64,000 nt of DNA from a bacterium (GCA_016699595.1 CP064982.1:443829-507828); one strand, 5' to 3'; positions 4,801 through 63,981 are shown, counted from the stretch's first letter. Notes: a model not told the origin generated them from the sequence alone. Numbers and translations are program-made.

Positions 4801-5680
4801 TTTTCAAAGTTATGACAGACTTTGCCTTTTCTTTTTGTTTTTCCAAGTTTTTCAATATTGCATCCATATCTTCATGCACTTTTTTCAACATAGTAATGAC
4901 AGCTTCAGCACCTATTTCTGTCTTGAAAAATTTTGCATTTGCTGACTCTATTTGATCAAGTTCATCTTCTGCCAAAACATCACCTACAGAAATATTTTCC
5001 AAAATTTCCTTGATAGCTGAATTTGCATCTCTCAGATCTTTTTCTTGCATATCATATTCAGCTTTCAAATTTGCAATCTCTTTATTTAATTCTGCATTCT
5101 TTTGGACCAACTTCAATTCGTTCTTTTCCTTTTTTATTTGTTTCAACTCTATTTCATACTCTTCTCGCAAATTCTCTATATCCTGTTCTCTACTACTTTT
5201 CATATCAGCAAGTCTTTCTTGTAGTTTTTCTTCTAGTTTTTCAATTTTTTCAACTCTTTTGTCTTCGTCAACTGCAACTACCAAATGTCTTGAGAAATAA
5301 ATCACTCCCTCAAGTTTTTTTGGAGGAATATCAAGAATAATAGCGAGTTTGTTTGGAGTGCCATGAGCATACCATACGTGAACAACTGGAGATGCAAGTT
5401 TGATGTGACCCATCCTTTCTCTTCGAACTCTTTTGTGAGTAACTTCTACTCCACATTTATCGCAGATGATACCTTTGTATCTGATTTTTTTATATTTTCC
5501 GCAATAGCATTCAAAATTTTTTGTAGGACCAAAAATTTTCTCACACATCAGACCATCTGGTTCTGCTCTTTGAGTGCGGTAATTTATCGTTTCTGCCCTA
5601 GTAACTTCACCGTGTGAATTTGCAAGAATATCTTGTGGCGATGAAATTGAAATTTTTAAGGATGAAAAATCTTTTAGCAT
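1853..5680 (-). CDS. rpoC: DNA-directed RNA polymerase subunit beta'
   Basis: 1275 aa with an N-terminal Zn finger (CEKIFGP...CYCGKYK...CDKCGVEV), the NADFDGDQM catalytic motif and trigger-loop regions. It contains a lineage-specific coiled-coil insertion (~aa 130-250). Confidence 0.97.
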
Positions 5681-5824
5681 AAAAGTATTCTTTATAATTA
5701 ACTACAAAAATTTTATGATTGATACAACACAACTTTATTTACTGACAAATTACTATGTATTTAATAAGCACTATCTTACAAGTAAGTAATATGTATGCTT
5801 ATAATAAAATTTAGAATTTACCCG

Positions 5825-11469: not shown

Positions 11470-11919
11470 GGGCGCGAAAGGATTTCGACAGAAGTACTGA
11501 TCCAAAAATCTCATGCAGTGTTTTACCATTATTGACACTTCAAAATAAATTTGGTAGTGATTTTCACTAGCATACATAAATGCAAACATCAAAACACAAT
11601 TTGCTCAATTTGCAAAAAATGTAAAAAGTGCCCTATATTATAGTGGCTTACTAAATTTTGCATAATAATTGAGCGAAGAAATGCCATGCATTTCCATAGA
11701 ATTAATTCCTTGATGGTGGAGAATTGATCTATGTTTCAAAAACACCATATGTAATATCTCTGTTTTTTATATGCTCAGAGGTACAAAACTATGAAGCATA
11801 TACTATTTGAAATACTTTTATAGATTGACATTCAAATAGAAACTAAATCTATAAAAGCATGTTATAAAGATTTAGGAAACGACTTTTGGAAGCGAGTTCG
11901 AATCTCGCCGCGTCCACCA
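11470..11919 (+). ncRNA. ssrA: transfer-messenger RNA (tmRNA, ssrA), not present in the ORF track
   Basis: The 3' end ggaagcgagttcgaatctcgccgcgtccacca aligns position-by-position with the E. coli tmRNA 3' end (GGACGCGGGUUCAACUCCCGCCAGCUCCACCA): T-arm, acceptor strand and encoded CCA. The 5' end gggcgcgaaaggatttcgacag pairs with that 3' strand across 7 bp, including a G3:U70 wobble, and contains the conserved GGAUUCGAC-like motif. An internal reading frame (11582-11668) ends in TAA TAA. Confidence 0.6.
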
Positions 11920-46652: not shown

Positions 46653-47192
46653 TTGTCAAACTACTTAGCAATACAAAGTTCATTTCAACCTGAAGAATTA
46701 GTTATAGAAACTGAAGGTAATATTTTTTTGCATAAATTTAGCGAAACTGAAAAACCTGCCGAGAACCTAGCAAAAGTAACTAGTGCAATTTTCAGCAAAA
46801 ATAATCTCAAAGTTGATAATCTCGACTTTGTCATAGTTACAACAGGTCCTGGAAGTTTCACTGGACTGCGAGTTGGTATCGCATATGCAAAATCTTTAGT
46901 TCAATTTAATAAAAATATCAAGTTAATTGGTTTAAATTTGCTTCAAGTTGCAAAATGGAAATTTGGAAAAGATTCCTATCTTGATGCAAGAAACAATAGA
47001 TCATTTATTTTAGAAAATGATAAGTTAGTAGTTAAAAATAATTCTGAAATTGCAGAATTTGAAAATTTTGTAAATGCAAATACTTTGAATGCAAATGATT
47101 TAATTGATTATGTGAAGAATAATGCAGTTGCTGAAGTTACTAATTTTTATGAATTTTTGCCTGATTATGTGCTAGAGCCTAGGATCGGGTAA
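46653..47192 (+). CDS. tsaB: tRNA threonylcarbamoyladenosine biosynthesis protein TsaB (YeaZ-like), TTG start
   Basis: Has ...IVTTGPGSFTGLRVGIAYAKSL..., characteristic of TsaB/YeaZ. It is short (179 aa) with a truncated C-terminus, as in minimal genomes. Confidence 0.7.
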   Translation: MSNYLAIQSSFQPEELVIETEGNIFLHKFSETEKPAENLAKVTSAIFSKNNLKVDNLDFVIVTTGPGSFTGLRVGIAYAKSLVQFNKNIKLIGLNLLQVAKWKFGKDSYLDARNNRSFILENDKLVVKNNSEIAEFENFVNANTLNANDLIDYVKNNAVAEVTNFYEFLPDYVLEPRIG

Positions 47193-47347
47193 ATCAGTTT
47201 TATAAACTTTTTAAGCTTATACAATTATCTATTTCCAAGTAATCGCCTTGACTAGATCTAACTAACAAATTATTTATCTACATCTAAGATAGACTGTAAA
47301 TACTGTAATATTTCATCTACTTTTATCTGTTTTGTCGTAGATAAGTT

Positions 47348-49723
47348 CTACATTCTTCCTCTTCCCTGTATCTCTTGATCAACTGCATTTCTATCCCTTC
47401 CATACCTGAGTCTTGACAACTCTTTGATATTTCTAAATGTCCTTTCATTGACTGGGTACTCTGTTCCAGCTATTATTGTTGGCTTTACTGAATCATAGAA
47501 TGTGCTCATTGAAAATGGCGGAGGATATTCACCGTTTACGAGAAGTTTGATATAAGCATTGAAGTTTTCTAAGTTTATCAAGTCGTTCTGTGAAAATATA
47601 GGTGCGAATTCATTTTGCAAATAACTTGCATCTTCAACTCCAACTTTGAATGACAGCATAGTACCAACATTACCAAATACAGCATGTTTGATTTTCTCAT
47701 CAATTTGGGCTATATATTGATTCCCTATAATCAGATTTAATCTATATTTTCTTGCTTCAGACAATATTTGGGCAAATTCTTCAGAAGCAAAATTTTGAAA
47801 CTCATCAACATAAAGATAAAAATCCTTTCTGTCACTTTCATTCATATCAGCTCTACTCATAGCAGCAGACAATATCTTTGGAATCAATAACAATCCCAAA
47901 AATTGTGCATTTTCTTCACCAACTAAACCTTTTGATAAATTTACAATTAAAATTTTCTGTTCATCCATTACTTTTCTAAAGTCAAACGAAGATACTGATT
48001 GACCGAGTATATTTCTCATCATCCTATTCGTGATAAATCTATCAAACTTAGAAATAATGTAACCTAAAACTTCAGATTTATGAAATTCATTTGTTTGAGC
48101 AATTTCTTTTTCCCAATACTCTCTAACTAGCGGATCTTGAATATATGGCAAGTACATTTTTTTCAAAAATTGATAGTCATATAAAATTCTTGCAACTTCA
48201 ACCAATGTACCTCCAGGTCTTGACATAACTGTAAGTAATGCATTTCGAACTGATCTTTCAAGTCTAGGTCCAACTATACCTTGCTTGTTTGGGTCAAACA
48301 TTTTGTAAAGCAAACCGATAAATGAATTTGCAACACGATGTTTATCATCTTCAGAGTAAGCTTCTACGATATTGAATGCTAATGGTCTCTCAACATCAGC
48401 TGGATTGAAATAAATGACATCTTCAGCCCTCTCAGATGGAATTCTTTCAAGTACCCATTCTGCAGCATCTCCATGAGGATCGAGATACGCAATGCCGTGC
48501 CCCTGTTTGATATCTTGAATAATCATTGATTGCATAGCATATGATTTCCCAGCTCCAGTTTTTCCAACCATGTACATATGCCTCCTTCTATCATCAGGTG
48601 CAATCCAAACTTGTTTTTTTGAACCTCGAAAAATTGAATTTCCAAGCCAAACACCTGGTGGTCCAGAAGGCACCTCTTCTGATGCAGGTGCTCTTTTACT
48701 TAACAGCCAATGTATATAAGGTGTTTGCACATTCTTGTTTGGAAAGTGAAATACTGTTGCTAGTTCTTCAGTATTTAGAGTAGTTGTTTGTCTTGGATTT
48801 CTATAAATAAAATCTTCTTCAAATTGTTTTTTTTGCTTTTCGTTTTTAAATTTAACCTTTTTGAATCTATTGGAACCTTGAAGTTCCATAGGATCAAACG
48901 AGGCAAGTACATTTTCTACATGCATTTTTGCGACTTCAATAGTTTTTGAAGCTGCTACAACCCTGATATCTACCAAGAAACCTACTTTTAGAGTTTTCTT
49001 CTCAACGCTACCTACTGATTCATCATCTCTAGGTTTTGACTTCTTTCCCTCTTCGGAACTGCCTGAATCTCGTACAGATTTGATAAATGATCTCCCTGCC
49101 TTTCGCCATTTTTTACTAGCTGGGGTTATCAAAATTTGCACTGCAACACCTTCACCTTCATTCATCCGACTCATAGCAGTTGTTACAGCTGACATAGTAT
49201 CCACATGCAATTCAGAAAATACCTTTATAGGTTTATACGAAACTTCAGCAAGCTTCAAGCCTGCATATTCAACCACTGAATCTTCATGAAATATATTGTA
49301 TTCATCTACTTCTTTCACATCTGCCTCCTGGTAGCTTGCATGTATTTGTTTTTCAACCAGTTGGGAAATTTTTTTGGGAACTATGACATAAAATCTTATA
49401 GACTCAGGAAGTCCCACTATCTCAAAAGAAACATAGTTTGGAGTTTTGAATAATTTTTCGTGCCACTTCGTAGGAACGGACGAAATAGATGTAAGTGCAG
49501 CAAACATCTGTTCTGCAGCGTGTACATCAACATCATTCGCTTTTGGTAACCTAACTTCATAACAAACACTATTCAAAGCTCTTTTCAATTGTTGTTCTTC
49601 TCTTCGTCTTCGTGCAAACATCATAAATAATCCTATCCCAATAGCTACAAGCAAAGTAAGTAATATCAATAAAACTAAGTATAATATGGCAGATGAATTT
49701 GAAGTTGATGATACTGTTGTCAT
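47348..49723 (-). CDS. membrane-anchored P-loop ATPase of the TraD/VirD4 (T4CP)/FtsK-HerA superfamily
   Basis: Has one N-terminal TM and a ~350-aa linker. Walker A is MYMVGKTGAGKSYAM, followed by YLDPHGDAAE (the DPxG[DE] block typical of T4CP/FtsK). A ~245-aa insertion precedes Walker B LYVDEFQNF (the spacing is T4CP-like, consistent with an all-alpha domain), and an Arg-rich C-terminus follows. A VirB4-like alternative is not excluded. Confidence 0.6.
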   Translation of the reverse strand: MTTVSSTSNSSAILYLVLLILLTLLVAIGIGLFMMFARRRREEQQLKRALNSVCYEVRLPKANDVDVHAAEQMFAALTSISSVPTKWHEKLFKTPNYVSFEIVGLPESIRFYVIVPKKISQLVEKQIHASYQEADVKEVDEYNIFHEDSVVEYAGLKLAEVSYKPIKVFSELHVDTMSAVTTAMSRMNEGEGVAVQILITPASKKWRKAGRSFIKSVRDSGSSEEGKKSKPRDDESVGSVEKKTLKVGFLVDIRVVAASKTIEVAKMHVENVLASFDPMELQGSNRFKKVKFKNEKQKKQFEEDFIYRNPRQTTTLNTEELATVFHFPNKNVQTPYIHWLLSKRAPASEEVPSGPPGVWLGNSIFRGSKKQVWIAPDDRRRHMYMVGKTGAGKSYAMQSMIIQDIKQGHGIAYLDPHGDAAEWVLERIPSERAEDVIYFNPADVERPLAFNIVEAYSEDDKHRVANSFIGLLYKMFDPNKQGIVGPRLERSVRNALLTVMSRPGGTLVEVARILYDYQFLKKMYLPYIQDPLVREYWEKEIAQTNEFHKSEVLGYIISKFDRFITNRMMRNILGQSVSSFDFRKVMDEQKILIVNLSKGLVGEENAQFLGLLLIPKILSAAMSRADMNESDRKDFYLYVDEFQNFASEEFAQILSEARKYRLNLIIGNQYIAQIDEKIKHAVFGNVGTMLSFKVGVEDASYLQNEFAPIFSQNDLINLENFNAYIKLLVNGEYPPPFSMSTFYDSVKPTIIAGTEYPVNERTFRNIKELSRLRYGRDRNAVDQEIQGRGRM

Positions 49724-50127
49724 TTATTTTGATCGTTAGCAGTTTACAAAAACATTTGTAAAGTCTTTATACACAAATTTCAGGTTTGTCTTTTGTTTGA
49801 GATATAAATATTTGCAAGAATCTTACTAAATGTAAATACACATACTTACATAAATATTATTATAATTATTGTAATTGTAACCCAGGTAATACCTTACGTC
49901 ATTTCTAATTTGATCAGTTACAACTACTTCAAAAATATCATCACGGTTCTATTGAACTACAGTTACTTGTTACATAATTTCTTTAATTTATCAAACAGAG
50001 CCAAAAATCGTGTAGTTATCCCTAACAAATAATTAAAAATATTTGCCAGTTTTCAAAGCTTACTCTAAAATGAATTTTCTCGCAATTTATAAACTATTTT
50101 TAACAAAGACACTTTCTTTAAAAGAAA

Positions 50128-52632
50128 TTATAAATTTATCTCTTTCACAATTATCTCTATATTAGCAAAATTTGTTGGAAGTTTCTGCAAAAACTTTGGA
50201 AGAAACTTTGGTTGGATGGTTGCTGAAACTATCTGCATTTTGTCATTTGACAAAGTCATAACTTCGCTCTGACTCTTACCCGATATAGATTTTTTTAGTT
50301 CAAGTGACGAAAACTCTGGTAAGGTTGAGGCGTTTATATGCAAAGAGAATATTATATTGTCAGCATTTACCCTGATATTATCGAATGAATAGTCAAACCT
50401 TTCAGTAATTTCCTGAGTATACTCTGAGACTCCATTACCCGTCAATTCTTTCTTTTTAACTTGGTATAGTTCTTTTGCTTTTGCCTCTATTGTCCCCTTA
50501 TCCAGTCCCTTAACTATCCCTTTGATTGTCACAGTAGCTGAAACTTCCTCTGCTTGTGCCCCAATTTGTGTAGAATATTCTTCTTTAACTATAGTATATT
50601 CCGGTTCTTGAGAAAGAAGAATAAAGCTATCTTTTGTCTTTGTTGTCAATTCACTTTTGATTTCTTCTTTAAGTTTATTCGATAGCTTTGAATTTAATTC
50701 ATCTTTTTCTTTTTGCGAAAAAATTAAGACCATATTTGTCTTCCCACCTGCTATATTGTTTGAAAAATTTGCAACAAGTTCGTCTGCGCTATAGTTAGCA
50801 ACTTTGCCTGTAGTATAAGTTGTACCAGTTATATTGTAATCCTCTCCAGATACAGTAGCAGTTATTGGTATCTGTGCTAGTAAACCATACACTGTGCCAG
50901 TGATTTGCTGAGTAGCATTAGGAACTACTCCACCTTTTGAAGCCTCATATTCAAGTGTCTTACCTCCTGCAGTTATAATTACTTTATAATTTTGTGGTAA
51001 AGTTATAGGGTTCGGTGTTTTATTGTATATATTGATAAATCCAGTAGCTTTAGAACCATTATCAACTTTGTTTGTAATTGTAACATTGTCAGAAGATGTT
51101 TTCTCAATCTCAACAGGTACAATGGCTAGACCTCCATTTTGATCTGTAGTCTTAGCTTCAATATCTTGAATAATCTCAATTTTGATAGGTTTCGGTTCAA
51201 TAGTAACTTGAGCTGTTCTAAGAGAATAAATCAACAAAACCAAAATAGGGAACAGAAGAATAATCGGCATCAAAATCATTATCTTTTTACCACGGAACAG
51301 CCCATCTGCTTTACCAAAAAAGTCAAGTATACTTTTCTGTAAATTCTGCAGAACAAACTTAAGTTTAGGAAATAATACGTCCATTAATCTCTTACCTAGA
51401 TATTTATTTGATTGAATTGAACGACTAGTTTTCTCTCCCTTGATACCTTTCATGTACACTCTATCATTAAATATACTAGCTCGTTTTTTCTTTATAGAAA
51501 CACCTTTTGCAATATTTACCTCTAGAGCTTTAGCTCTACCCTTTACCTCGTGGGGAAACTTTACCTTGCTTAAAAAATGTTTTAGAGAGTTTCTCTCAAC
51601 TTTAGAATATATTGGACCTATCTCTTGATCTACTGAATCTAAATTAGGGTTAACCCAATTTATTTCGCTTTGATTATTTATGTCATTAATTATATCTTCT
51701 GAAGGATTTTTTTTTTGGAGAATTGAAGCTTCCTCTATGCCATCTTCAATAATTTTACCTGAGACTTCATCGAATTCAGCAACATCACCACCAGCAACTA
51801 AAATGAAATTCTCATCTATAATCAGTTTTCCTCTTCGTAATTTTGGTGCTGTGTTTGGGGTGGTCTCACTGTCTTTCTGAGCTTTATAAGTATTGTACAA
51901 TTCCTCAAATGTAGGTTGCTTTTGTACTTCATCTTCTAATGATTCCTCAACAGTACTAATTAGAATACTTTCATCACTATTTACAGTTTTTATTGAGTTT
52001 CTAGCACTTTCAGATGAAGTATCTTCGAGAGTTTCAGGTTTGTCGTCATTTTGATTTTCAATTAGTAAGTTCAAAGTATTTTCTTCGTAATCAACTTTTG
52101 CATCAGCATCTTTAAGATTCTCTAGATAATCTTCATCTTTACTAGCGCTGATTAAACTTTCTTCGAGATTATCTTGAGAAATGTCTACACTCTCATTAGG
52201 ATCAACGTCAAAAATTTCAGTTTTTTCTGATTCTACAATGGCAGCATTTTGACTTGCAATTTGCCTTAAAGATAATAACTTCCTTTTCGTGTTATCCATT
52301 CTTCGAGTAAAACTTTCTTTCAAATCATCTGCTATTTGCCACTTTTGACTATCAGCCTGCCCAGAATCTTGTATTACTACCAAACTCACCTGCTTTCCTA
52401 GTTTTTCAGCTTCTTTGTCTTTTGTTTGAATTATGACAATTTTGTTTAGCCTTAGAATTTCCTTTGCAAGGATTCTCAAACTTACAATATTTGTAAATAC
52501 CTCTGAACCACTTGGAACAACTAGCAGAACTTTTTCACTACTAGTCTCCAGTATACTTTCAATGATAAAAGTCATCTCATCATCTACATCTAGAAAAATT
52601 TTTGTTATGTTTTGATTAGAAATCTTTGACAC
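50128..52632 (-). CDS. hypothetical 834-aa bitopic membrane protein (acidic cytoplasmic N-domain, central TM, Thr/Gly/Asn-rich extracytoplasmic C-domain)
   Basis: Has a single strong TM (KIMILMPIILLFPILVLLIYSL at ~aa 455-478). The N-terminal 90 aa look like an alpha/beta module (KVLLVVPSGSEV...). No recognisable enzyme motif. It lies immediately downstream of the FtsA homologue. Confidence 0.5.
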   Translation of the reverse strand: MSKISNQNITKIFLDVDDEMTFIIESILETSSEKVLLVVPSGSEVFTNIVSLRILAKEILRLNKIVIIQTKDKEAEKLGKQVSLVVIQDSGQADSQKWQIADDLKESFTRRMDNTKRKLLSLRQIASQNAAIVESEKTEIFDVDPNESVDISQDNLEESLISASKDEDYLENLKDADAKVDYEENTLNLLIENQNDDKPETLEDTSSESARNSIKTVNSDESILISTVEESLEDEVQKQPTFEELYNTYKAQKDSETTPNTAPKLRRGKLIIDENFILVAGGDVAEFDEVSGKIIEDGIEEASILQKKNPSEDIINDINNQSEINWVNPNLDSVDQEIGPIYSKVERNSLKHFLSKVKFPHEVKGRAKALEVNIAKGVSIKKKRASIFNDRVYMKGIKGEKTSRSIQSNKYLGKRLMDVLFPKLKFVLQNLQKSILDFFGKADGLFRGKKIMILMPIILLFPILVLLIYSLRTAQVTIEPKPIKIEIIQDIEAKTTDQNGGLAIVPVEIEKTSSDNVTITNKVDNGSKATGFINIYNKTPNPITLPQNYKVIITAGGKTLEYEASKGGVVPNATQQITGTVYGLLAQIPITATVSGEDYNITGTTYTTGKVANYSADELVANFSNNIAGGKTNMVLIFSQKEKDELNSKLSNKLKEEIKSELTTKTKDSFILLSQEPEYTIVKEEYSTQIGAQAEEVSATVTIKGIVKGLDKGTIEAKAKELYQVKKKELTGNGVSEYTQEITERFDYSFDNIRVNADNIIFSLHINASTLPEFSSLELKKSISGKSQSEVMTLSNDKMQIVSATIQPKFLPKFLQKLPTNFANIEIIVKEINL

Positions 52633-52657
52633 AATTCTATACTTATTACTTGCAAGT

Positions 52658-53890
52658 TTAATTTAGGAGACTTTCAAGTGCTATTGCAGAAACACTTACA
52701 TCATCAATATCTGTAAGCAGATTCATTTCATCAACCAAATTTCTCAAATCTCTAGGATAAATAAGTTCTGGCTCCGGAAATTTCTCAAAAGGCAAATAGT
52801 TTAGCCAAGCAAAAGTTCTTATACTTTCTTGAATTTGAGATAACTTTGCACCTCCACCTGAAAGAAAAATTCTCGTAGGATACGTTTCTACTTCATCCAT
52901 ATCAGATAATGACACTTGAATCCCAGAAACTAAAACCCTAGCATCTTTTTCAAAAGCTCTTTGAATCATTTGCTTATCATTTAGTTTTATGACATCAGTT
53001 TTTGGATCTTCAGACATTCTAATTTTTATTTTTTCAGCCTTCAAATAATCAATATTTAATAATTTTTGCACCCTGTGTGTAAATGCTCTTCCTCCTAAAG
53101 CAAACATTTTTACTCCAACAAAGCTACCATTCGAAACCATAGCAACATCAGTAGTACCTGCACCTATATCAGCAAAAACTCCCGAGAATCGCTCTCTTTC
53201 CGAACCTGAATAGTTATTTGCAATTGCAAATGGCACAACAGTAATTTTGGCTATTGAAAGGCCAAGATACTCTGCAATCGTTCTGATACTTTGGATATGC
53301 TGATCTTGTGTGAACGAAAAGAAAATTTTAAATGAAACACTTTTTCCTTTGAAACCAACTAAATCACTAACTCTAAGTCCATTTATATAACAATCTTTCC
53401 TAGTAGATGAAACTTCAACTATTTCTGCATGTGAGATACCATGTTTTTTACCAATTTCGACTTTTATGCTATCACTTGTCTCCTCTCTTAGCTTGGACTC
53501 AATATCGTGAAGTTCCTCTTCAGTAATGATCTGCTCTGGCATTTCTCTTTCATAGTTTGCATAAACAACTTCACCATTAACTATTTCTCCTGCTATTCCT
53601 AAATACAAACTTTCTGGATACTCTTTGGATTCTAGATTTTTGCATGCTTCTGCGATCGCTAAGTCACAATTTTCCTTGACATTTTGTATATTTGTAATCA
53701 TTCCACCCTTCATCGCACCAGCTTGTTGTCGAGATCTACCATAACCTACGGTATGTACTCTTCCATTTTCTTTGAAAAACACCAATGCTTTTACCCACTC
53801 GGTTCCAATATCAAGTGCCAAAACATTTCCCGATCTAGAATTTCTTCTTGGCTCAATATTTTGTTTTTTGAATTTATCGAAAATTGACAT
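52658..53890 (-). CDS. ftsA: actin-like ATPase, FtsA homologue (FtsA/PilM family)
   Basis: VLALDIGTEWVKALVF...GYGRSRQQAGAMKGGMITNIQNV parallels the FtsA N-terminus (LVVGLEIGTAKVAALVGE...GVGSCPSRGMDKGGVNDLESVV). GVFADIGAGTTDVAMVSNG...GGRAFT...AEKIKI parallels the FtsA phosphate-2/adenosine motifs. A 1C-like insertion is present. Confidence 0.7.
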   Translation of the reverse strand: MSIFDKFKKQNIEPRRNSRSGNVLALDIGTEWVKALVFFKENGRVHTVGYGRSRQQAGAMKGGMITNIQNVKENCDLAIAEACKNLESKEYPESLYLGIAGEIVNGEVVYANYEREMPEQIITEEELHDIESKLREETSDSIKVEIGKKHGISHAEIVEVSSTRKDCYINGLRVSDLVGFKGKSVSFKIFFSFTQDQHIQSIRTIAEYLGLSIAKITVVPFAIANNYSGSERERFSGVFADIGAGTTDVAMVSNGSFVGVKMFALGGRAFTHRVQKLLNIDYLKAEKIKIRMSEDPKTDVIKLNDKQMIQRAFEKDARVLVSGIQVSLSDMDEVETYPTRIFLSGGGAKLSQIQESIRTFAWLNYLPFEKFPEPELIYPRDLRNLVDEMNLLTDIDDVSVSAIALESLLN

Positions 53891-53899
53891 TAGAAAGAC

Positions 53900-54505
53900 T
53901 TATTTATTTACAACTGAATTCAAAGCATTTTGTTTTGCTTGTTCATAAAGTTCATTACCAATTATTTTCAAAGACTGTCGTATCATTACTTTATCTTTAT
54001 CACTTGCAATATTTTTATCTGTAGAATTTAAATAAGTGTTTGGAAAACTAAATTCTTTGATCTTCTGTGGATTTTTTTTGACATCAAATGTATTTGTTCC
54101 TAAGTATTCTGCATAAAATAAAGTATTTGAAAATGAACTTCCATTTACTTTTGGATTGTCTTTTTTATAACCATAACAACTAGCTATATAATAGTACTTT
54201 TCCAATCCTTTCATTGCTGCAGATTCATCAATACTGTAATCTATAACTCTCAAAGCACAACTATATTTGTCAGTTAACTCATTTGTTTTCAAATAATAAT
54301 TTTCTAAAGTATATTTCAACATTTCTATAGTTTGTGAATCAACTTGAGATCCTGAAACGTTGGAATTATAAAGTTTATATAGGTTTTTTGAATTTACTAA
54401 TGATGCATTAAATCCTAAACTTGTTACCAAAAAGAAAACATTACAACAACAAGATAATATTAGCAATACAGTTAAAATTATTATTAAAATACTTTTAGTG
54501 TTCAT
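53900..54505 (-). CDS. hypothetical bitopic membrane protein, CCC-motif family member 3
   Basis: Has an N-terminal TM with LILSCCCNVFF and a ~170-aa extracytoplasmic domain. It is directly upstream of ftsA on the same strand. Confidence 0.45.
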   Translation of the reverse strand: MNTKSILIIILTVLLILSCCCNVFFLVTSLGFNASLVNSKNLYKLYNSNVSGSQVDSQTIEMLKYTLENYYLKTNELTDKYSCALRVIDYSIDESAAMKGLEKYYYIASCYGYKKDNPKVNGSSFSNTLFYAEYLGTNTFDVKKNPQKIKEFSFPNTYLNSTDKNIASDKDKVMIRQSLKIIGNELYEQAKQNALNSVVNK

Positions 54506-54550
54506 AATATTAAAAATTAAAACTATAAACTTATGAAAATTGAATAAGTT

Positions 54551-55636
54551 TTACGAATAAACTCCAATATCTTCAGGTATAAACTGTCTGAAGTTTTGTG
54601 GAGAAATTTGTATACGATCAACTTTCTGCTCAACTATAATTCTTGCAACTTTCCTAGCAACATTTGTTAAATTTCTTTCAAGCTGCCTTATACCTGCGTC
54701 GAATCCAAGCGGCCTTATCATAAGTGGCCAAACATCATTTGTAAAAGTCATTTGATTTTCACTTAGTCCAGTAGCTTTCCGAATCTTTGGAAGCAAGTAG
54801 TTTTCTGCAATATTTGCCTTTTCAGCATCATTATAACTAGAGAATCGAATTATTTCCAAACGATCAAGTAAAGCAGCAGAAATCGTACCTAGTGTATTTG
54901 CAGTTGCTATGAACATTACATTTGACAAGTCAATTGGGTAATCTATATAAGCGTCCATATAAGTTCCATTTTGCTCAGGGTCAAGAATTTCAATCAAAGC
55001 TGCATTATAATCAAACCTCTCAACTTCATTTCCAGCAGTTTTATCCATTTCATCAAGCAAAATAATTGGATTCATAGTTCCAGCTCGTTGGAGTGCTTTT
55101 ATGATCTGTCCCGGTTCTGCTCCTGTTACATATCTTGGCATTCCCTTCAATCTTCCAATATTTCCAAGTGCATTGAGTGAAATTCTGACAAACTTTTTAT
55201 TCAAGGCTTCAGCTAATGATTTTGCCATGGTAGTTTTTCCAATACCTTGAACTCCAACAAAACATAAAATAGGTGCGTGAGAAGAATTTCCTGCAAGATT
55301 ACTCATATCTTCACTTGCTCGGCTAATCTTTCCACTTTGTAAATTCATAACAGCTACATATTCAGCAATTCTATTTTTGATTTCGTTTAATCCAAAATGA
55401 TTATGGTTGAGAATATCTATTGAATGATTGATTTCTAAATTATCCTTTGTGTAATTGCCAAAAGGAATTTGTAATATATTTTGGATATAATGTTCAACAA
55501 TATCAAATTCTGTTGAAAAATTACCAGCATCAGCCATGCGAGAAAGCCTATCAAGCATTTTGAGTGCCTTTTCCTTCAAACCAACTGGCATACTGGAATT
55601 CTCAACTTGTATTTTTAATGACTTTATTTCATCCAA
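54551..55636 (-). CDS. Lon-type AAA+ ATPase module, lacking both the Lon N-domain and the S16 protease domain
   Basis: It aligns across its length with Lon residues ~280-600. The matching blocks are KEKALKMLDRL (Lon KEKALKELDRL), HFGLNEIKNRIAEYVAV (HYGLEKVKERILEYLAV), PILCFVGVQGIGKTTMAKSLAEAL (Walker A), ILLDEMDK (Walker B), EILDPEQN, FIATAN and LLDRLEIIRFSSY. The ORF ends where the protease domain would begin. Confidence 0.7.
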   Translation of the reverse strand: MDEIKSLKIQVENSSMPVGLKEKALKMLDRLSRMADAGNFSTEFDIVEHYIQNILQIPFGNYTKDNLEINHSIDILNHNHFGLNEIKNRIAEYVAVMNLQSGKISRASEDMSNLAGNSSHAPILCFVGVQGIGKTTMAKSLAEALNKKFVRISLNALGNIGRLKGMPRYVTGAEPGQIIKALQRAGTMNPIILLDEMDKTAGNEVERFDYNAALIEILDPEQNGTYMDAYIDYPIDLSNVMFIATANTLGTISAALLDRLEIIRFSSYNDAEKANIAENYLLPKIRKATGLSENQMTFTNDVWPLMIRPLGFDAGIRQLERNLTNVARKVARIIVEQKVDRIQISPQNFRQFIPEDIGVYS

Positions 55637-55711
55637 TCTAAATTTATTTTACTAAAATTTGGGAAAGAAAGTAATGAAATTAGTTCAAAATGAACCAATA
55701 CATTGAAACTT

Positions 55712-56923
55712 TCAATTTATCAATCCTTTTTTATATTTAACCCTCAAAACTCTTTCAACTGCATTATCCAACCTTTCTTCTGAAACTTCTCCATTCTCAA
55801 CTCCAAGTTTAATTTGCTCAAATGCAACTTCAATCTGAGTAGGATCTGTTAGAAATAACATATCATGTCCAGCAATTACTGTTTTTGTATATTTCTCTGC
55901 TTCATCTTTGAAAACTTCAGCACTCAAATTACTTGAAATTACTATCCCACTATAATTGATTTCATTTTTCAACATATCAGTTACAAACTTTTTTGAAAAG
56001 GTAACTTGGTTATCATCAACTTTTGAATACTTTGCAGCTGAAGTCATAACAAAATCAGAGTTGTTTGCAATTTGAAAGTAAGGCTTTAAGTCACCACTTT
56101 TGAGTTCATCTAAAGTCATTTCGCTTATTTGAAAAGATTTATTTGGATCAAGTTGGAATGTTCCAGTACCTGGAAAATACTTCATAGTCGAGCTTATATT
56201 TTCATTTTGTCCTAGTATTATTTGCTCAGCAAGCGGTATCCATTTATCAAAGTTACGATCCCAACCTTGCATTTTCAAGTAGCTTGTCGAACCTAGCAAA
56301 CCTTCAGTTATTGGAGAAAAATTTACATTAAATCCACCTTCGTTCAAGCTTTGCCCCTTTGACAAACCGTAGCCATAAGAAATTTTTGGAGTATTGTTTC
56401 GTTCCAGAAAATAGTAACTTACACCTGTTGACCCTTCTCCATAAAGATGATTTGTCTGATCCCAAGGAACTTTTCGCACTGCACCTCCATCATCGTCTGT
56501 AGAGATAAAAAGTTTGATTTTTGAATTTTTTTGTAAATCTTCATTGAACCTTTTAGTTGTTGCAAGATCTGAAATGTTGCTATTGGATAAGTAAATACCT
56601 CCAACATTATAAGTATCTAAGATTGTTTGAGTCGAATTAGAAAAAGTTTGACCATTTATACCAACAAACAGCATCTGTCCTATTTTCTGTTCAAGATTCA
56701 TTGTCAGTACTTCTCGTTTTGGAATGTTCCTTTGTTTGTAAATTTCATACCATGATTGAAATCCCGTGATAATGTCAACCTTTTGAATATCAATTTGAGT
56801 CAAAGCATTTAGCTTATCAAGTGTAACTTGGTACTTATATTCAGTTGAAAAATAAAGCGCACTAGCTAAAGCAAGAATTATAATTCCGCCAACAATAAAT
56901 AATTTTGTGAAAAAAGAAGACAT
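55712..56923 (-). CDS. glycoside hydrolase family 3 N-terminal domain protein (NagZ-like beta-N-acetylhexosaminidase), membrane-anchored
   Basis: Has an N-terminal TM, then KIGQMLFVGINGQ...VGGIYL...KIKLFISTDDDGGAVRKV... matching the GH3 N-domain (KIGQ...GG.IL...PL.IA.DQEGG.V.R). Confidence 0.7.
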   Translation of the reverse strand: MSSFFTKLFIVGGIIILALASALYFSTEYKYQVTLDKLNALTQIDIQKVDIITGFQSWYEIYKQRNIPKREVLTMNLEQKIGQMLFVGINGQTFSNSTQTILDTYNVGGIYLSNSNISDLATTKRFNEDLQKNSKIKLFISTDDDGGAVRKVPWDQTNHLYGEGSTGVSYYFLERNNTPKISYGYGLSKGQSLNEGGFNVNFSPITEGLLGSTSYLKMQGWDRNFDKWIPLAEQIILGQNENISSTMKYFPGTGTFQLDPNKSFQISEMTLDELKSGDLKPYFQIANNSDFVMTSAAKYSKVDDNQVTFSKKFVTDMLKNEINYSGIVISSNLSAEVFKDEAEKYTKTVIAGHDMLFLTDPTQIEVAFEQIKLGVENGEVSEERLDNAVERVLRVKYKKGLIN

Positions 56924-56940
56924 AAGAATAAAGTGATTAT

Positions 56941-57147
56941 TTAGATCAACAAAAATATCAAAACCAATATCAACATTGCTAAACTTGCCAACACTAGAAC
57001 GATAATTCTATTACGAAATATCTCACTTCTCTTCCTAAAATCAAGATACAAAGGTGCCTCAAATGACAATGTACTTTGATCTTTTTCTTTTATGACGAAT
57101 TTATCTTCGGAAATTTGTTGAATCTTTTGATACAATAGGCTTCGCAT
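56941..57147 (-). CDS. hypothetical small membrane protein
   Basis: 68 aa with a C-terminal TM. It may be spurious. Confidence 0.2.
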   Translation of the reverse strand: MRSLLYQKIQQISEDKFVIKEKDQSTLSFEAPLYLDFRKRSEIFRNRIIVLVLASLAMLILVLIFLLI

Positions 57148-57217
57148 ATGTTATATTTTATATTAGTATATGAATTAGTTCAATAGCAAGTATTTCATAA
57201 CTTATAAATCTCGAGTC

Positions 57218-58219
57218 TTGTCACAAAACCTTCTAAATAAATCCCTTCTAACTATACTCTTATTTTTGCTATCCATCAATGTTGGTATGAAATATGCAGA
57301 AGTCTTAACGCCAATTAGTAAAAATGCAAGCGAGATGATGTTCATGATTGAAGGTGAAGAAATAAAAAGTATTCATCCTATTGCTTCAAATATTCCGAAC
57401 TATTTTTTTACGAAAAATACAAGCATCAAAACATTAGCTAAATTGCACTTTGAATCTATTGATTCAAAGTCATTGCTTACAGATAGGTTGAAACTAGAAA
57501 ACTTCACTGCAGAATCCATACTTATTAGCAGTACAAATGGCGATATGATATTGGATAAATCTATAAATGAACAGTTACAAGTAGCCTCAATCACAAAGTT
57601 ACTTAGTATACTTACTGCACTAAAATATGAAGACAATTTAGATCTTTACTTTACTATACCCGAGGAAACAGATGAGGTTACTGGCAATGTTCTAGGGTTT
57701 CAGAAAGGTGAAAAGTATAAATTTGCAGATTTAATTGCAGCAAGTCTGATTTTTAGTTCAAATGACGCAATTAGAGCAATTGAAACAAATATAGAAGGTC
57801 TATACAGAATTAGTTTTGTTGAAGAAATGAACAAGCTAGCATCTGATCTCAATATGACGAGTAGTTCATTTGGAGATTCCATAGGCTTTGATCTTCCAAA
57901 TTCATACTCTACCGCTGAAGACATTATGAAACTATCCAAGTTCGCATATCAAAATGACATTATCAGAAGATACTCTACGGTAAAAGAATTCAGGATTTAT
58001 AGTGAGGGTGGAAAAGTAATTTCATTTCGTAATACGAATGAAATGCTGAAGTATGAGAATGTATATGGATTGAAAACTGGAACTACTGAGCAAGCAAAAG
58101 AGTGCTTAGTTATGATACTCAGACATTATGATACAGACTATTATGTAGTGATACTTGGATCAGGTGATAGATATCAAGATGCGACTAAAATATACCAAAT
58201 TATGGAATCTTTGAAATAG
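57218..58219 (+). CDS. dacA: D-alanyl-D-alanine carboxypeptidase (peptidase S11, PBP5-like)
   Basis: Has the SxxK (ASITK), SxN (SSNDA) and KTG (KTGTT) motifs in the correct order and spacing. An N-terminal signal/TM is present. Confidence 0.8.
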   Translation: MSQNLLNKSLLTILLFLLSINVGMKYAEVLTPISKNASEMMFMIEGEEIKSIHPIASNIPNYFFTKNTSIKTLAKLHFESIDSKSLLTDRLKLENFTAESILISSTNGDMILDKSINEQLQVASITKLLSILTALKYEDNLDLYFTIPEETDEVTGNVLGFQKGEKYKFADLIAASLIFSSNDAIRAIETNIEGLYRISFVEEMNKLASDLNMTSSSFGDSIGFDLPNSYSTAEDIMKLSKFAYQNDIIRRYSTVKEFRIYSEGGKVISFRNTNEMLKYENVYGLKTGTTEQAKECLVMILRHYDTDYYVVILGSGDRYQDATKIYQIMESLK

Positions 58220-59734: not shown

Positions 59735-60178
59735 TTAATTTTTGTTTATACTTGTCGTTGAGGAAGATTCTCCAACTCCCATAAATATTGAATTATTACA
59801 ATTTGCATCACAATATACTCTCTTATAATTTTTTGGTAATTCATAATTATTATCAAGTAGCCAACCGTCAAGTTTCAGTATAATGTCAGATTCAGAAAGA
59901 TACAATGAATTGACAAATACAATCTTCTGACTATCATCAATTAAAATACTCATATCTTCATCATTATATATATTTTTTAGATCAGGCAAATCATCTATGC
60001 TAACTGTACTAGTAATTGAATTCGTCATATTAGAACCATTATTTGTTACCTTTTTATTTCTTGATACTAATAAGTTTATAGTAATTAACAAAGCACATAG
60101 GATAATTGCAAAAACAAATATCAAAATAGAATACTTCTTTGAGTTTTGAATTGAATTATTTGATAAATTTGTAGACAT
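59735..60178 (-). CDS. hypothetical membrane-anchored protein
   Basis: 147 aa with an N-terminal TM. It abuts the start of gapN. Confidence 0.35.
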   Translation of the reverse strand: MSTNLSNNSIQNSKKYSILIFVFAIILCALLITINLLVSRNKKVTNNGSNMTNSITSTVSIDDLPDLKNIYNDEDMSILIDDSQKIVFVNSLYLSESDIILKLDGWLLDNNYELPKNYKRVYCDANCNNSIFMGVGESSSTTSINKN

Positions 60179-63100
60179 TAATTTATAAAGTACTGTTTAA
60201 ATTTTGCAGAATTTTCAACAACCTTACGGCAATATGTGAAATACGTAGGATTATCAGGAGAACAACTCCCAAGGTAGCCTTCGGCAGCTTTCCAAATATC
60301 TCCATTTGTCCAGTTTGTACATTTATCTCCTTCTACTCCTCTGGCACTAGCTTTCTGTCTGATAATCAAGGTACTTCCACACATTCCATCTCCAAAATAG
60401 TACCTTTCAGATTGATTCGCTGACCTACTAGAATTGACTAATTGCAAGCAGTTTGAGAATAAAGTTGTACCTGCTACATCTGGCCAAGTATTAGAATTGA
60501 TTTGAAAAGGACCCCTCACATCACAATCACCCCTTCGTATACATTCAGCATTGTTATCTTTCATTAATATATCATCAGTGAAATTCCCAGTGGCCGAAAC
60601 AACTGGATGTGCACAATTTGATTCATTTTGCCAAATAGCCATAAGAAGCTCAGGTGGAATACATGCATTTCTTGAAGTATCTTTAACCAACTTTACAATT
60701 TCAGGTATTGCAAAAACGCCCTGACAATTTCTTGAGATATTACCATTCTCTATTTCAGGTACTTGAGATGCACTAGGTTTAATATTACATTTAAATGGAT
60801 TATATTCCAAATTATCTACCTTTTTTTTGTCATCTGACACATTGACATTCAAAAAACCTTCATCCACCATTTCTTTATATGTCAACATACCATTTCTACA
60901 TAAATACACACCCATTTGATCATACTTGTACATATTTTCATTTGAATTACTATCACACAAACACATGAAGTAATTATTCGTAGAAGAACATTTCTGTAGT
61001 AACATATTTTCATTTGAGTTCATATTGAATCCCACCATCGAAAGATGCTGATTTATCAAAGCTACAGTGCCAAGCCAAGGAAATTGTGCAGAGGTAATCT
61101 GATAGTCCATATTAGAACTTATAACTGGTCTTTTATATCCAGACAGCAAGCCATTGTTTGGATTTACGCATTGTGAATCTGAAGTTTTCCCAGTATTTAT
61201 AGATTCACTTTGACTAACTGAATATTTCCGTATATACAAACTTGCCTCAGTATGAACATTTTGATTTATACATATTCTATTTTGTCGCAGTAAAGAATCA
61301 GCAGAATTAACTTGATAAGATAATCCATTTGCATTTGATTTGTTTGAATATTCCAACCTTTTTGCCCATTCCCATGCAGTTCTCAGTACCCTAAGAAGTC
61401 CATCTGCCGAATCAATTGTAGGTGCACTACTCCAACTCCTAAGTAGAAAATGTCCGTGAGGAGGTTCGTTTTGATTTATAGATGCACTTTCTGTATAGCC
61501 CCAAAATGGAGCAGGATAATCGCCAGAAATCGTATAAAAATCATTATAGACATTGCTACTAGTCAAAACATTCCTTTCGATTTGTTTAAGTTTTGTGCTG
61601 GGATCTGCAATTCTAGGCTCATCTTTTCTGCAATAATTCACCAAACAAACCGGATTTAAAACTGATATTCTTTGTGTTGAATTTGTTGTTTCAATTACAG
61701 CTCCAGTTAATCTATTTTTTCTGACTGTTCTCACAACTGTCGATGGAAAGTTATCACATGCTACATTATAACTATATGTACTTGCATTATTAGGTTTGCT
61801 TTCATCGGTATTTTGCAATGTTACTTTAGCTGTTGGATCTCCCAAGTATTTATATCCGCCTTGATATGGTTTAAATAGATACGAGCAACTTACTTCATAT
61901 CCATAAGGTGTTGTGGTATTTTTACCTACCAGTTCAGTACTAATAGCATATTCATCACTCATTACTTCAGATGGTGTCAATTGAAACTTTGCGATCTCTT
62001 CCAATGTATAATCTTTGAGTTTGGAAACTACATTCTTTTTTATATCTTGATTTACTTTTACAACATAGTTTATACTGTCCTTACTTATATCATTGGCACT
62101 TGGTATTGATGAAAATGGAAATAAAAATTTACCATAATAACCCCTTAAAGATTTTAAAGCTTGGTTTGTAGCTCTAAATTCAGTGCCATTTTGTCCAATG
62201 TAATAATTTCTCAATGAACCACTGTAATAATTAGTTATTTTGAAAGAATCGGAGATTACATTTGGTTCAAAAACTACCCCAGATTCTTCAAGATAATCCA
62301 AGTAATCATAACCATATAGTTCCACTGCAGTACCAATTTGATATGGAATACTAGAACCGGTAGATAATTGAATGTTGGAATTAACCTTCCTTGTCATGTC
62401 AAAAGCTTCATCAGTATTCATTCGATTCACATAATTTCCATATTGTATGAAATCCAAATCTTCCGTACCCGCAGCACTTGTATTGACCAAGGATTGAGTC
62501 ATCGGCATATTCAACCTTGCTGTAGTAACTATATTTCCTGAATACAAAACATCTATCGGGGTATTTACCAAAGTTGTAACAACACATTCATTACCACTGC
62601 AGTAATTGCCGATTTCTATGTCTCCGTACTTCAATTCTTTATCAGGCAAGTCGTAATAGCCTAAATAAATATCTTCAGATGAGTTTTCAACATTCACAAC
62701 ATCTTGTGATAAATCTTTGAATTTCAGGCGTTCTACTTCTACGAAAGAACTTTGCCCTGAACTAGTTTTTAACAATTCGCCAGTTTCTATATTTGTTTTA
62801 GCTAGATTTTCATTTGAACATGAATACGTGTATTTATTGGCACAACCTGCAACTTCCATAAAATCATACATTTGTGATTCATACCAGTATGTCCAATCAT
62901 TATTGATACCTGTAGTTGGTTCAGCTATATCTCCATAAATGCATCCATAGTAGTTACTTGAAAGAGGGCTGACACGCAGAGAGTAGTACTTATTGGCATC
63001 TTTTACCTCACCTGTTTTGCTCAAAATTTCATTCTCTCCTATCTTCGTATCAAGAGGTAAGTTCATCGCTATGTAATATCTACATGCTCGCCAATGATCT

Positions 63101-63981
63101 TTATCCGACAAATCAGCAAGACCTAAATCTGTTATTTTACCCTTGATTCTTGGATATTCATTTGTATAAACATTCTCTAACCTAGTATTTGCATAGTATT
63201 GATCTCTATCATAAACCGACCTCTCGAGATCAGTAAGTTGAGCAAAGATTTTCCCAGAAGGTTCTTGGCCCCTAATTCTAGATTCACCCAAAGGAGCACC
63301 ATTGAAGAGTAGCACTGCCTCTATATATGGATTTGTCATAAGTTGGAGCAACATATCATATTCATACTTCTTTGCCCATTCATCTGTTGCAGCAGAATAA
63401 ATTGGCTTGTTATCGACAGGATCTAGCCCTGTTTCAAGGAAAAATAGCTTTCTATCATTAGCTTTTGCATACTCAAGAGCATCCCTCAATTGAGGTATCA
63501 TAGTATTACCTTCAGCATCAAAGACATACATATTTATTGCAATTCCGACCAATCCACCAAAATCTGCATTAGCATCTTTCATTTGATTGAGGTATTCAAT
63601 ATCAGCAAGCGACATCACGGGGCTTAGCAAATTTATATGTTTTCTATATTTGTAGTAATCTTCTATTCTCAATGATCCGCCACAGTTGTAATTGCCCTTA
63701 TTTATATCATCGTCTGAAGTATTCAATGCACACTGAAAGGCTCGCAGTGTTGACAGATGATATATAACTGAATTCATATATCTGGTAACTTTGCCAGCAT
63801 CAATTTCAGGTATATCTGTTGGTATATTTGGTTCGTTTGGACCAGCTATAGCCCAAACTGATATATCATATCCGTTTGATTTAGTTTTATTTTCCAGTTC
63901 AATTGCTAATTTTGCAAGTTTAATTGAATACTTCTCAGCTGCATTGGATATTTGTGATTCATTTCTAGCTAGTGGGGCCAA
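60178..63981 (-). CDS. large (1267 aa) multidomain cell-wall-active-like protein: N-terminal GH-A-like (TIM-barrel glycosidase) motifs and a C-terminal lysozyme-like/SLT-like domain
   Basis: The N-terminus has WAIAGPNEPNI (an NEP acid/base-like motif) and, ~135 aa later, LFFLETGLD (a TE-x-G nucleophile-like motif), as in clan GH-A. The C-terminus has ...AIWQNESN... and ...RGPFQINSNTW..., resembling the E...GLMQI pattern of lytic transglycosylases. The protein is Cys/Tyr/Asn-rich. The start is bounded by an in-frame TAG immediately upstream, and no signal peptide is evident. Confidence 0.6.
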   Translation of the reverse strand: MAPLARNESQISNAAEKYSIKLAKLAIELENKTKSNGYDISVWAIAGPNEPNIPTDIPEIDAGKVTRYMNSVIYHLSTLRAFQCALNTSDDDINKGNYNCGGSLRIEDYYKYRKHINLLSPVMSLADIEYLNQMKDANADFGGLVGIAINMYVFDAEGNTMIPQLRDALEYAKANDRKLFFLETGLDPVDNKPIYSAATDEWAKKYEYDMLLQLMTNPYIEAVLLFNGAPLGESRIRGQEPSGKIFAQLTDLERSVYDRDQYYANTRLENVYTNEYPRIKGKITDLGLADLSDKDHWRACRYYIAMNLPLDTKIGENEILSKTGEVKDANKYYSLRVSPLSSNYYGCIYGDIAEPTTGINNDWTYWYESQMYDFMEVAGCANKYTYSCSNENLAKTNIETGELLKTSSGQSSFVEVERLKFKDLSQDVVNVENSSEDIYLGYYDLPDKELKYGDIEIGNYCSGNECVVTTLVNTPIDVLYSGNIVTTARLNMPMTQSLVNTSAAGTEDLDFIQYGNYVNRMNTDEAFDMTRKVNSNIQLSTGSSIPYQIGTAVELYGYDYLDYLEESGVVFEPNVISDSFKITNYYSGSLRNYYIGQNGTEFRATNQALKSLRGYYGKFLFPFSSIPSANDISKDSINYVVKVNQDIKKNVVSKLKDYTLEEIAKFQLTPSEVMSDEYAISTELVGKNTTTPYGYEVSCSYLFKPYQGGYKYLGDPTAKVTLQNTDESKPNNASTYSYNVACDNFPSTVVRTVRKNRLTGAVIETTNSTQRISVLNPVCLVNYCRKDEPRIADPSTKLKQIERNVLTSSNVYNDFYTISGDYPAPFWGYTESASINQNEPPHGHFLLRSWSSAPTIDSADGLLRVLRTAWEWAKRLEYSNKSNANGLSYQVNSADSLLRQNRICINQNVHTEASLYIRKYSVSQSESINTGKTSDSQCVNPNNGLLSGYKRPVISSNMDYQITSAQFPWLGTVALINQHLSMVGFNMNSNENMLLQKCSSTNNYFMCLCDSNSNENMYKYDQMGVYLCRNGMLTYKEMVDEGFLNVNVSDDKKKVDNLEYNPFKCNIKPSASQVPEIENGNISRNCQGVFAIPEIVKLVKDTSRNACIPPELLMAIWQNESNCAHPVVSATGNFTDDILMKDNNAECIRRGDCDVRGPFQINSNTWPDVAGTTLFSNCLQLVNSSRSANQSERYYFGDGMCGSTLIIRQKASARGVEGDKCTNWTNGDIWKAAEGYLGSCSPDNPTYFTYCRKVVENSAKFKQYFIN

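Follow-up and report, generated by a model that had tools for sequence, protein, structure and literature searches.

Described actin-like systems and the FtsA-like/partner gene pair

Several bacterial systems combine a cytoplasmic actin-like protein with a bitopic membrane protein, such as FtsA with FtsN in the divisome, PilM with PilN in the pilus alignment complex, the fused PilM and PilN of type II secretion (GspL), and MreB with RodZ. We compare these systems here with two adjacent minus-strand genes in a 64-kb stretch of a bacterial chromosome (GCA_016699595.1, CP064982.1:443829–507828; hereafter the window, with positions counted from its first nucleotide). The proteins encoded in the window have their closest relatives in Candidatus Dojkabacteria and other Patescibacteria, a group that accounts for much of bacterial diversity and whose cell biology has seen little experimental work. 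The first gene (52658–53890) encodes an FtsA-like actin-fold ATPase of 410 aa, and the second (50128–52632, GTG start) a bitopic protein of 834 aa, referred to as the partner. Both lie in a run of five minus-strand genes, from 55636 down to 47348, which the original prediction, made from the sequence of the window, had suggested might be a novel envelope-spanning machine, and our list of open reading frames (ORFs) reproduced all five exactly. The combination maps to no described divisome, type IV secretion system (T4SS), type IV pilus or competence operon, but only the FtsA-like protein and its partner are conserved together. We put the probability at roughly 0.65 that the juxtaposition of these genes is lineage-specific and that the region contains one coherent unit, the FtsA-like/partner module, which spans the membrane and functions in envelope growth or division.

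The FtsA-like family shares with FtsA the actin fold with its 1C (SHS2) insertion, intact ATP-binding motifs and, in most members, a cationic amphipathic helix at the C-terminus, but differs in its low sequence identity and sub-cut-off profile scores, in never being found beside ftsZ, and in being directly followed by the gene for a bitopic partner; the copy in the window also lacks the amphipathic tail. The logic of an actin-like protein with a bitopic partner is that of FtsA and FtsN, and the bitopic partner gene immediately downstream of the gene for a cytoplasmic actin-like protein recalls pilM and pilN, while natural fusions of the two proteins (described below) resemble GspL in joining a degenerate actin-like domain to a transmembrane (TM) helix and ectodomain. 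Unlike PilM–PilN and GspL, the pair has no pilus or secretion genes nearby in the annotated neighbourhoods. The partner carries a folded N-terminal domain of ~100 aa and a long linker instead of the short PilM-binding peptide of PilN, and its ectodomain consists of a Baseplate_J/GlxA-type barrel with two α/β domains, unlike the PilN/PilO fold.

In overall architecture the pair is also similar to MreB–RodZ, pairing an actin-like protein with a bitopic protein whose N-domain is folded and cytoplasmic and whose outer domain, beyond one TM helix, is rich in β-structure, and both have cell-wall genes as neighbours (mltG and a LysM/CHAP hydrolase gene for the pair, and GH3 hydrolase and S11 carboxypeptidase genes in the window). 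The N-domain of the partner has no sequence or fold similarity to the helix-turn-helix domain of RodZ, however, and the actin-like protein belongs to the FtsA/PilM class, unlike MreB. The pair falls outside FtsA and PilM membership, and the partner shares the Baseplate_J fold without being a member of an injection system.

Conservation and genomic position of the pair

For the synteny analysis one genome per species was scanned with an alignment of the FtsA-like family, and all ORFs of the retrieved loci were scored with hidden Markov models (HMMs) built in this analysis. The FtsA-like family was represented by 41 loci, which scored 400–660 bits with the family HMM, compared to ~100 bits for canonical FtsA, and which came from Patescibacteria, Chloroflexota (Limnocylindrales and Chloroflexia), Dormibacterota and one Firmicute, the complete genome of Natroniella sp. 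ANB-PHB2. In 34 of the 37 loci that could be assessed, the next gene downstream, in the same orientation, was that of the partner, and in two more the partner gene was within 4 kb of the FtsA-like gene. The gap between the two genes has a median of ~9 nt and lies between −14 and +36 nt for most of the 34, with five outliers (−208, 103, 125, 160 and 365 nt). As the original prediction had noted, the FtsA homologue has no ftsZ next to it: FtsZ is not encoded anywhere within the 64-kb window, and ftsZ was adjacent in none of the 41 family loci (window included), whereas 42 of the 45 canonical ftsA loci have ftsZ after ftsA.

In Saccharibacteria the gene order is mnmA, alaS, FtsA-like gene, partner gene, ruvX, mltG (YceG), a LysM/CHAP hydrolase gene and obg, and alaS is also found upstream of the pair in Limnocylindrales, Dormibacterota and Natroniella. 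Clustering of the neighbouring genes and annotation of the clusters placed alaS nearby upstream in 19 loci and ruvX/mltG downstream in 17, and the loci flanked in this way span Saccharibacteria, Limnocylindrales, Dormibacterota and Natroniella, with the Natroniella pair located within the classical alaS-ruvX-mltG block of Firmicutes. Such a near-fixed position in different phyla indicates that the pair has long been inherited vertically and has a core role in the cell, unlike a mobile element. The alaS/ruvX/mltG context is lost in the window, where the local neighbours are genes for a GH3 hydrolase, an S11 D-Ala-D-Ala carboxypeptidase, a Lon-type AAA+ module and a 201-aa protein. In the locus of Natroniella, the only cultured Firmicute with the pair, a 719-aa protein without a convincing Pfam match is encoded between alaS and the FtsA-like gene (L034, 7722–9881).

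The pair is thus a conserved, uncharacterised membrane-spanning two-gene module, widely distributed (with thousands of cluster representatives) and so far unnamed; our literature search found no paper on the pair, or on an association of FtsA with Baseplate_J.

The FtsA-like protein

The ATP-binding motifs of the 410-aa protein are intact (DIGTE at residues 27–31, DIGAGTTD at 241–248 and GGG at 345–347), and residues 22–292 align without a break to FtsA structures; the match to TIGR01174 covers positions 2–255 of that model. In the actin fold, 1B is replaced by the 1C/SHS2 subdomain, and the 1C region is conserved across the family, which is ~25% identical to canonical FtsA. A word-indexed search recovered >3400 relatives of ~418 aa, which carry inconsistent labels (FtsA, PilM, MreB-like and Hsp70). 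Of 30 aligned family members, 20 carry a cationic amphipathic C-terminal helix (hydrophobic moment, μH, of 0.5–0.9 with a positive net charge), which we take to be comparable to the membrane-targeting sequence of E. coli FtsA. This helix is lacking in the window protein, where the tail has a μH of 0.16 and a net charge of −2, and likewise in its close Dojkabacteria-like relatives. Since the window copy has lost the helix, membrane attachment of the FtsA-like protein in this lineage may rely on the partner. The same clade thus combines loss of the helix (window 52658–52700) with a partner that is ~160 aa above the family median.

FtsA profiles were the top profile matches of the 410-aa protein (TIGR01174 79.6 bits, Pfam FtsA 44.5 bits). 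Together with the 1C topology of the FtsA type, the FtsA-like amphipathic helix in most family members and the cell-wall genes nearby, these matches could indicate that it is the true divisome FtsA of the lineage, moved away from ftsZ, and that the 834-aa protein is a divisome anchor like ZipA, FtsN or FtsQ. We regard this as unlikely, as the scores are far under the FtsA equivalog cut-offs (175.85 bits for TIGR01174, and 42 versus 409 bits for PRK09472) and the contrast in ftsZ adjacency with canonical ftsA is almost complete. The family is present in Chloroflexia, a class which also has an FtsA of the canonical type, although in a different metagenome-assembled genome (L067), and it occurs in a Firmicute as well, while a canonical ftsA-ftsZ arrangement is the norm in Firmicutes. 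Finally, ftsZ in bacteria of the candidate phyla radiation (CPR) retains a dcw context that contains FtsA (PMC9871819), for which reason the FtsA-like protein is treated here as a putative paralogue, distinct from the FtsA encoded beside ftsZ. For annotation purposes this would split the paralogue, currently labelled FtsA, PilM, MreB or Hsp70, from true FtsA.

The top PDB match of the protein was PilM of M. xanthus, and its match to Pfam PilM_2 was marginally above the cut-off (29.3 versus 27 bits). The pair could accordingly represent a PilM/PilN-type alignment subcomplex, serving a type IV pilus or competence machinery with genes at another site in the genome, which would share the architecture of an actin-like protein with a bitopic partner and would fit the heavy reliance of CPR bacteria on type IV pili (PMC11623550). 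This explanation is doubtful, and rather more so than that of a relocated FtsA: TIGR01175 gives only 39.6 bits where 133 are required, no pilB, pilC, pilin, pilN or pilO genes are present in the annotated neighbourhoods, the conserved context is alaS-ruvX-mltG, and the type IV pilus loci of TM7x have PilM/N/O sets of their own (PMC11623550).

The partner protein

The 834-aa protein matched no Pfam, NCBIfam or PHROGs family, and word-indexed searches with the protein or with its family alignment recovered only 2 and 5 proteins, respectively, so that an exhaustive search of representatives was needed. In a library clustered at 50% identity this search gave 2331 representatives (E ≤ 0.001) with a median length of ~670 aa (671 aa), making the window copy a long member of its family. 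The partner is composed of ~450 aa in the cytoplasm, a single TM helix (residues 450–471, 51220–51285, minus strand) and ~360 aa outside; basic residues ahead of the TM helix predict that its N-terminus is inside. The original prediction of two bitopic proteins with large extracytoplasmic domains and no recognisable motifs, the second being the 201-aa protein discussed below, holds in that neither has a Pfam or NCBIfam family, but the larger part of the 834-aa protein is cytoplasmic, and its ectodomain has a recognisable fold.

The cytoplasmic part was modelled by AlphaFold2 with family alignments. It starts with a small α/β domain (residues 9–90, β-α-β-α-β-α, predicted local distance difference test, pLDDT, ~97), which is followed by a long helix up to residue 138 (together 52219–52608, minus strand), and K11, F13, P40, L55, K64 and W98 are near-invariant residues of this region. 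A variable and mostly disordered linker (residues 139–448, 51289–52218, minus strand) connects it to the TM helix, and within the linker there is a conserved helix and a β-hairpin with a near-invariant GGD at residues 281–283 (in VAGGDV, 51781–51798).

The ectodomain model has a mean pLDDT of 91.8 and shows a β-barrel of the Baseplate_J/GlxA-barrel fold (residues ~473–637, 50722–51216, minus strand), structurally similar to that of baseplate wedge proteins, and two C-terminal α/β domains (residues ~638–834, 50131–50721, minus strand), which are weakly SIMPL/BP26-like. The described relatives of this barrel are the Baseplate_J proteins (PF04865; phage Mu gp47, T4 gp6 and the wedge proteins of contractile injection systems) and the GlxA β-barrel (PF21110). 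The partner sequence from the window itself gives no match to Pfam Baseplate_J, while several homologues exceed the cut-off of 21.1 bits (P0274 with 40.6 bits, L034 with 33 bits and P0235 with 32 bits). Only ~125–150 residues align, and unlike Baseplate_J proteins the partner is a membrane-anchored cellular protein with a cytoplasmic domain, encoded without tail or sheath genes in the context and in housekeeping surroundings in all loci. "Baseplate J" matches in these genomes are therefore better annotated as cellular membrane proteins than as prophage remnants.

Fusion of the FtsA-like protein and its partner

Two proteins (P0235 and P0269) match the HMMs of both the FtsA-like family and the partner. 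They start with a degenerate actin-like domain of ~250 residues, and continue with the TM helix and ectodomain of the partner. The N-terminal part was aligned to the FtsA-like family with a probability of 96.2% (hhalign, E 2.3e-9); it has lost subdomains 1C and 2B and the ATP-binding motifs, and retains the family-specific W..L.F..FP motif. The fusions occupy the site orthologous to that of the pair, as the fusion gene follows alaS in one locus (L120), with no separate FtsA-like gene in between, and is followed by a sortase gene and ruvX in another (L117). By the Rosetta-stone argument, the existence of such natural fusions suggests that the FtsA-like protein and its partner act as one complex, and argues for a physical interaction between them. 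The loci related to the fusions are L117–L121, and the sortase gene of L117 is an insertion beside the fusion.

Proposed function of the pair

Based on synteny, the fusions and structure prediction, we propose that the FtsA-like protein would dock on the cytoplasmic part of the partner, with candidate sites in the conserved α/β domain at the N-terminus of the partner and/or in its GGD hairpin next to the membrane. Nucleotide-dependent assembly on the cytoplasmic side could then be coupled through the complex to the Baseplate_J/GlxA-type barrel, located in the cell wall compartment, so that a membrane-tethered actin-like ATPase and a wall-facing barrel would act together in envelope growth or division. 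Such a role is most likely, in preference to secretion, because the pair adjoins ruvX-mltG, and in Saccharibacteria also the LysM/CHAP hydrolase gene. The pair is thus a candidate for the link between the wall and a filament or ATPase in the cytoplasm of Patescibacteria.

Several observations weigh against this interpretation. The first three intergenic gaps in the five-gene run are only 45, 9 and 25 nt, making it likely that the genes for the Lon-type module, the 201-aa protein and the pair are co-transcribed in the organism of the window, and the products of these genes may also be functionally linked locally in this organism. The alaS-ruvX-mltG adjacency is a weak functional clue, because Firmicutes conserve the block although its genes have no known function in common. 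Finally, in one Saccharibacteria locus (L036) a gene related to the type IV coupling protein (T4CP)-like ATPase gene of the window is present at 2–5 kb from the pair, although a single case among ~37 loci is roughly what is expected by chance.

A more far-reaching and tentative possibility, to which we give clearly less weight than to a module for envelope growth or division as such, is that the pair represents an unrecognised ancient actin-based membrane-spanning system, the third of the FtsA/PilM class beside the divisome and the pilus alignment complex. Patescibacteria, Chloroflexota, Dormibacterota and some Firmicutes would share this system, which would organise wall growth or division in ultrasmall bacteria that are short of much of the classical machinery.

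Neighbouring genes and the five-gene interpretation

The other three genes of the run encode the Lon-type AAA+ module (54551–55636, minus strand, 361 aa), the 201-aa bitopic protein (53900–54505, minus strand) and the T4CP/DUF87-like P-loop ATPase (47348–49723, minus strand, 791 aa). The proposal that all five form one envelope-spanning machine, for division, translocation of DNA or protein, or cell-cell attachment, draws on their co-directional and tightly spaced arrangement in the window, on each product being membrane-associated or an ATPase, on the Lon-type gene near the pair in the closest relative that has both (L087), and on the T4CP-like gene of L036. It is nevertheless improbable. Lack of synteny in relatives had been named beforehand as one refuting outcome, and the pair is syntenic, while the other three genes are not: each is missing near the pair in 36–39 of the 39 other pair loci screened, with the Lon-type gene, the T4CP-like gene and the 201-aa gene near the pair in one locus each (L087, L036 and L002, respectively). 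An opposite-strand gene separates the Lon-type gene and the pair in L087, and the pair is followed there by ORFs of 112 and 540 aa (groES- and groEL-sized, by size alone) and not by an ATPase gene; Cpn10 and Cpn60 are encoded at this position in L003. In L036, alaS is located between the ATPase gene and the pair. We also found no support for a link to epibiotic attachment, and the pair is present in Chloroflexota, Dormibacterota and a Natroniella, which we take to be free-living. Treating the three products as unrelated neighbours guards against over-reading the cluster in terms of secretion or attachment.

In the window itself, the ATPase gene is set apart by the predicted AT-rich spacer of ~400 bp, which measures 404 nt (49724–50127, intergenic, no strand assigned). 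No Rfam family matches the spacer, its fold is not significant (z = −0.07), and its ORFs are tiny and not credible; it is probably a boundary between transcription units. A scan for promoters and terminators over positions 47000–57400 gave the same counts as shuffled sequence. A sixth co-directional gene, absent from the original list, encodes a membrane-anchored GH3 (NagZ-like) glycosidase (55712–56923, minus strand) and lies 75 nt upstream of the Lon-type gene.

The 361-aa protein consists of the Lon AAA+ domain and lid only, covering positions 254–571 of the 795 of TIGR00763, which is in line with the predicted Lon-derived unfoldase without a peptidase domain. It matches PF00004 (77 bits) and Lon_lid (40.6 bits), and resembles LonA structures in the PDB (E 2e-70, 40–50% similar over the module and lid), with the Walker A, Walker B, arginine finger and sensor-2 motifs all present. 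Unlike the LonA protease it has no N-terminal LON substrate domain and no S16 Ser-Lys peptidase, and the ORF, flanked by the GH3 gene and a membrane protein gene, cannot be extended. A metagenome scan found ~25 relatives (L087–L111) with 43–55% identity and intact ATPase motifs, with full-length Lon showing up only at 39% identity; since all of these relatives are 350–400 aa long, the missing protease domain is a conserved feature and not a sign of a pseudogene. The neighbours in these loci are unrelated housekeeping genes (encoding uracil-DNA glycosylase, UvrD, PNPase, MetRS, RNase J, L25 and FtsK), which again speaks against a five-gene machine. The module is an independent, conserved housekeeping protein of unfoldase-like type, outside the conserved pair. 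PADLOC gave only a weak, generic ATPase match (DolB) for this protein, and no defence system fits.

The 201-aa protein has a CCC motif within its predicted TM helix. Its only homologue is in L002, a contig 99% identical to the window, and the gene is a lineage-specific orphan. We considered whether it could be a split-off Lon peptidase, and rejected this, as the protein has no peptidase signal and the gene of ~204 aa downstream of the Lon-type gene in relatives encodes a uracil-DNA glycosylase. Profile searches thus assigned domain families to the 361-, 410- and 791-aa proteins, and none to the 834- and 201-aa proteins.

The 791-aa ATPase is membrane-anchored, as had been predicted, by one N-terminal TM helix within residues 12–36, with the remainder cytoplasmic, and the predicted hallmarks were located at residues 387–394 (GKTGAGKS, Walker A), 415–419 (DPHGD) and 639–642 (VDEF, Walker B). 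It shares this layout with T4CPs (VirD4, TraD, TrwB and DotL) and scores above the Pfam cut-offs for TrwB_AAD_bind (32.5 versus 20.5 bits) and DUF87 (27.3 versus 23.2 bits), but stays below the cut-off of every curated NCBIfam T4CP model (best match SXT_TraD, 57.7 versus 366 bits). We rejected the idea that it is an FtsK, since there is no FtsK_SpoIIIE domain and a true FtsK is different (L097). Full-length homology is to DUF87 ATPases of Firmicute plasmids and phages: proteins with 22–24% identity are encoded on Bacillus plasmids, next to a relaxase-family gene, conjugal transfer genes and the gene for a VirB4-sized ATP-binding protein (847 aa), and the ATPase matches PHROG 5156 (E 2e-93), with relatives in SPO1-like Bacillus phages (gp27.4) and in phage G (gp156).

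Unlike the T4CPs, the ATPase is a chromosomal orphan amid housekeeping genes, both in the window, where it is flanked by a tsaB-like gene, a CoA ligase gene and the pair, and in L036. No relaxase, VirB4, T4SS or integrase genes were found among the annotated ORFs of the window (some small ORFs were not scanned), nor was an integrated conjugative element found around the ATPase gene. Translocation of DNA or another substrate is a plausible function. PADLOC matches (mad8 and HerA) were weak and generic, and no defence system fits. In L036 the ATPase family is represented by two split genes (5008–8050, 461 and 546 aa), the second of which ends in a treble-clef zinc finger.

The least probable explanation, that the 834-aa Baseplate_J-like gene is a prophage or tailocin remnant and the cluster mobile-element debris, can appeal to the structural similarity of the ectodomain to baseplate wedge proteins and to the phage and plasmid relatives of the ATPase (PHROG 5156), but is hardly credible given the TM anchor and conserved cytoplasmic domain of the partner, its lack of a PHROGs match, its fixed housekeeping position across phyla, the uniform GC content of the window, and the lack of other phage structural genes, integrase or relaxase among the annotated ORFs of the window.

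Other features of the window

The window is a chromosome stretch with a GC content of 32%, even along its whole length, and is rich in housekeeping genes, including those for transfer-messenger RNA (tmRNA), tRNAs, aminoacyl-tRNA synthetases, FtsH and RNase Y. Two further minus-strand ORFs had no Pfam match, one of 1267 aa (60178–63981) and one of 147 aa (59735–60178), which comes after it and is located just upstream of an aldehyde dehydrogenase gene. The tmRNA gene (11470–11919, 63 bits with the Rfam tmRNA model) is long at 450 nt, and the tag peptide predicted by ARAGORN is unusually long as well, with 27 residues (ANIKTQFAQFAKNVKSALYYSGLLNFA).

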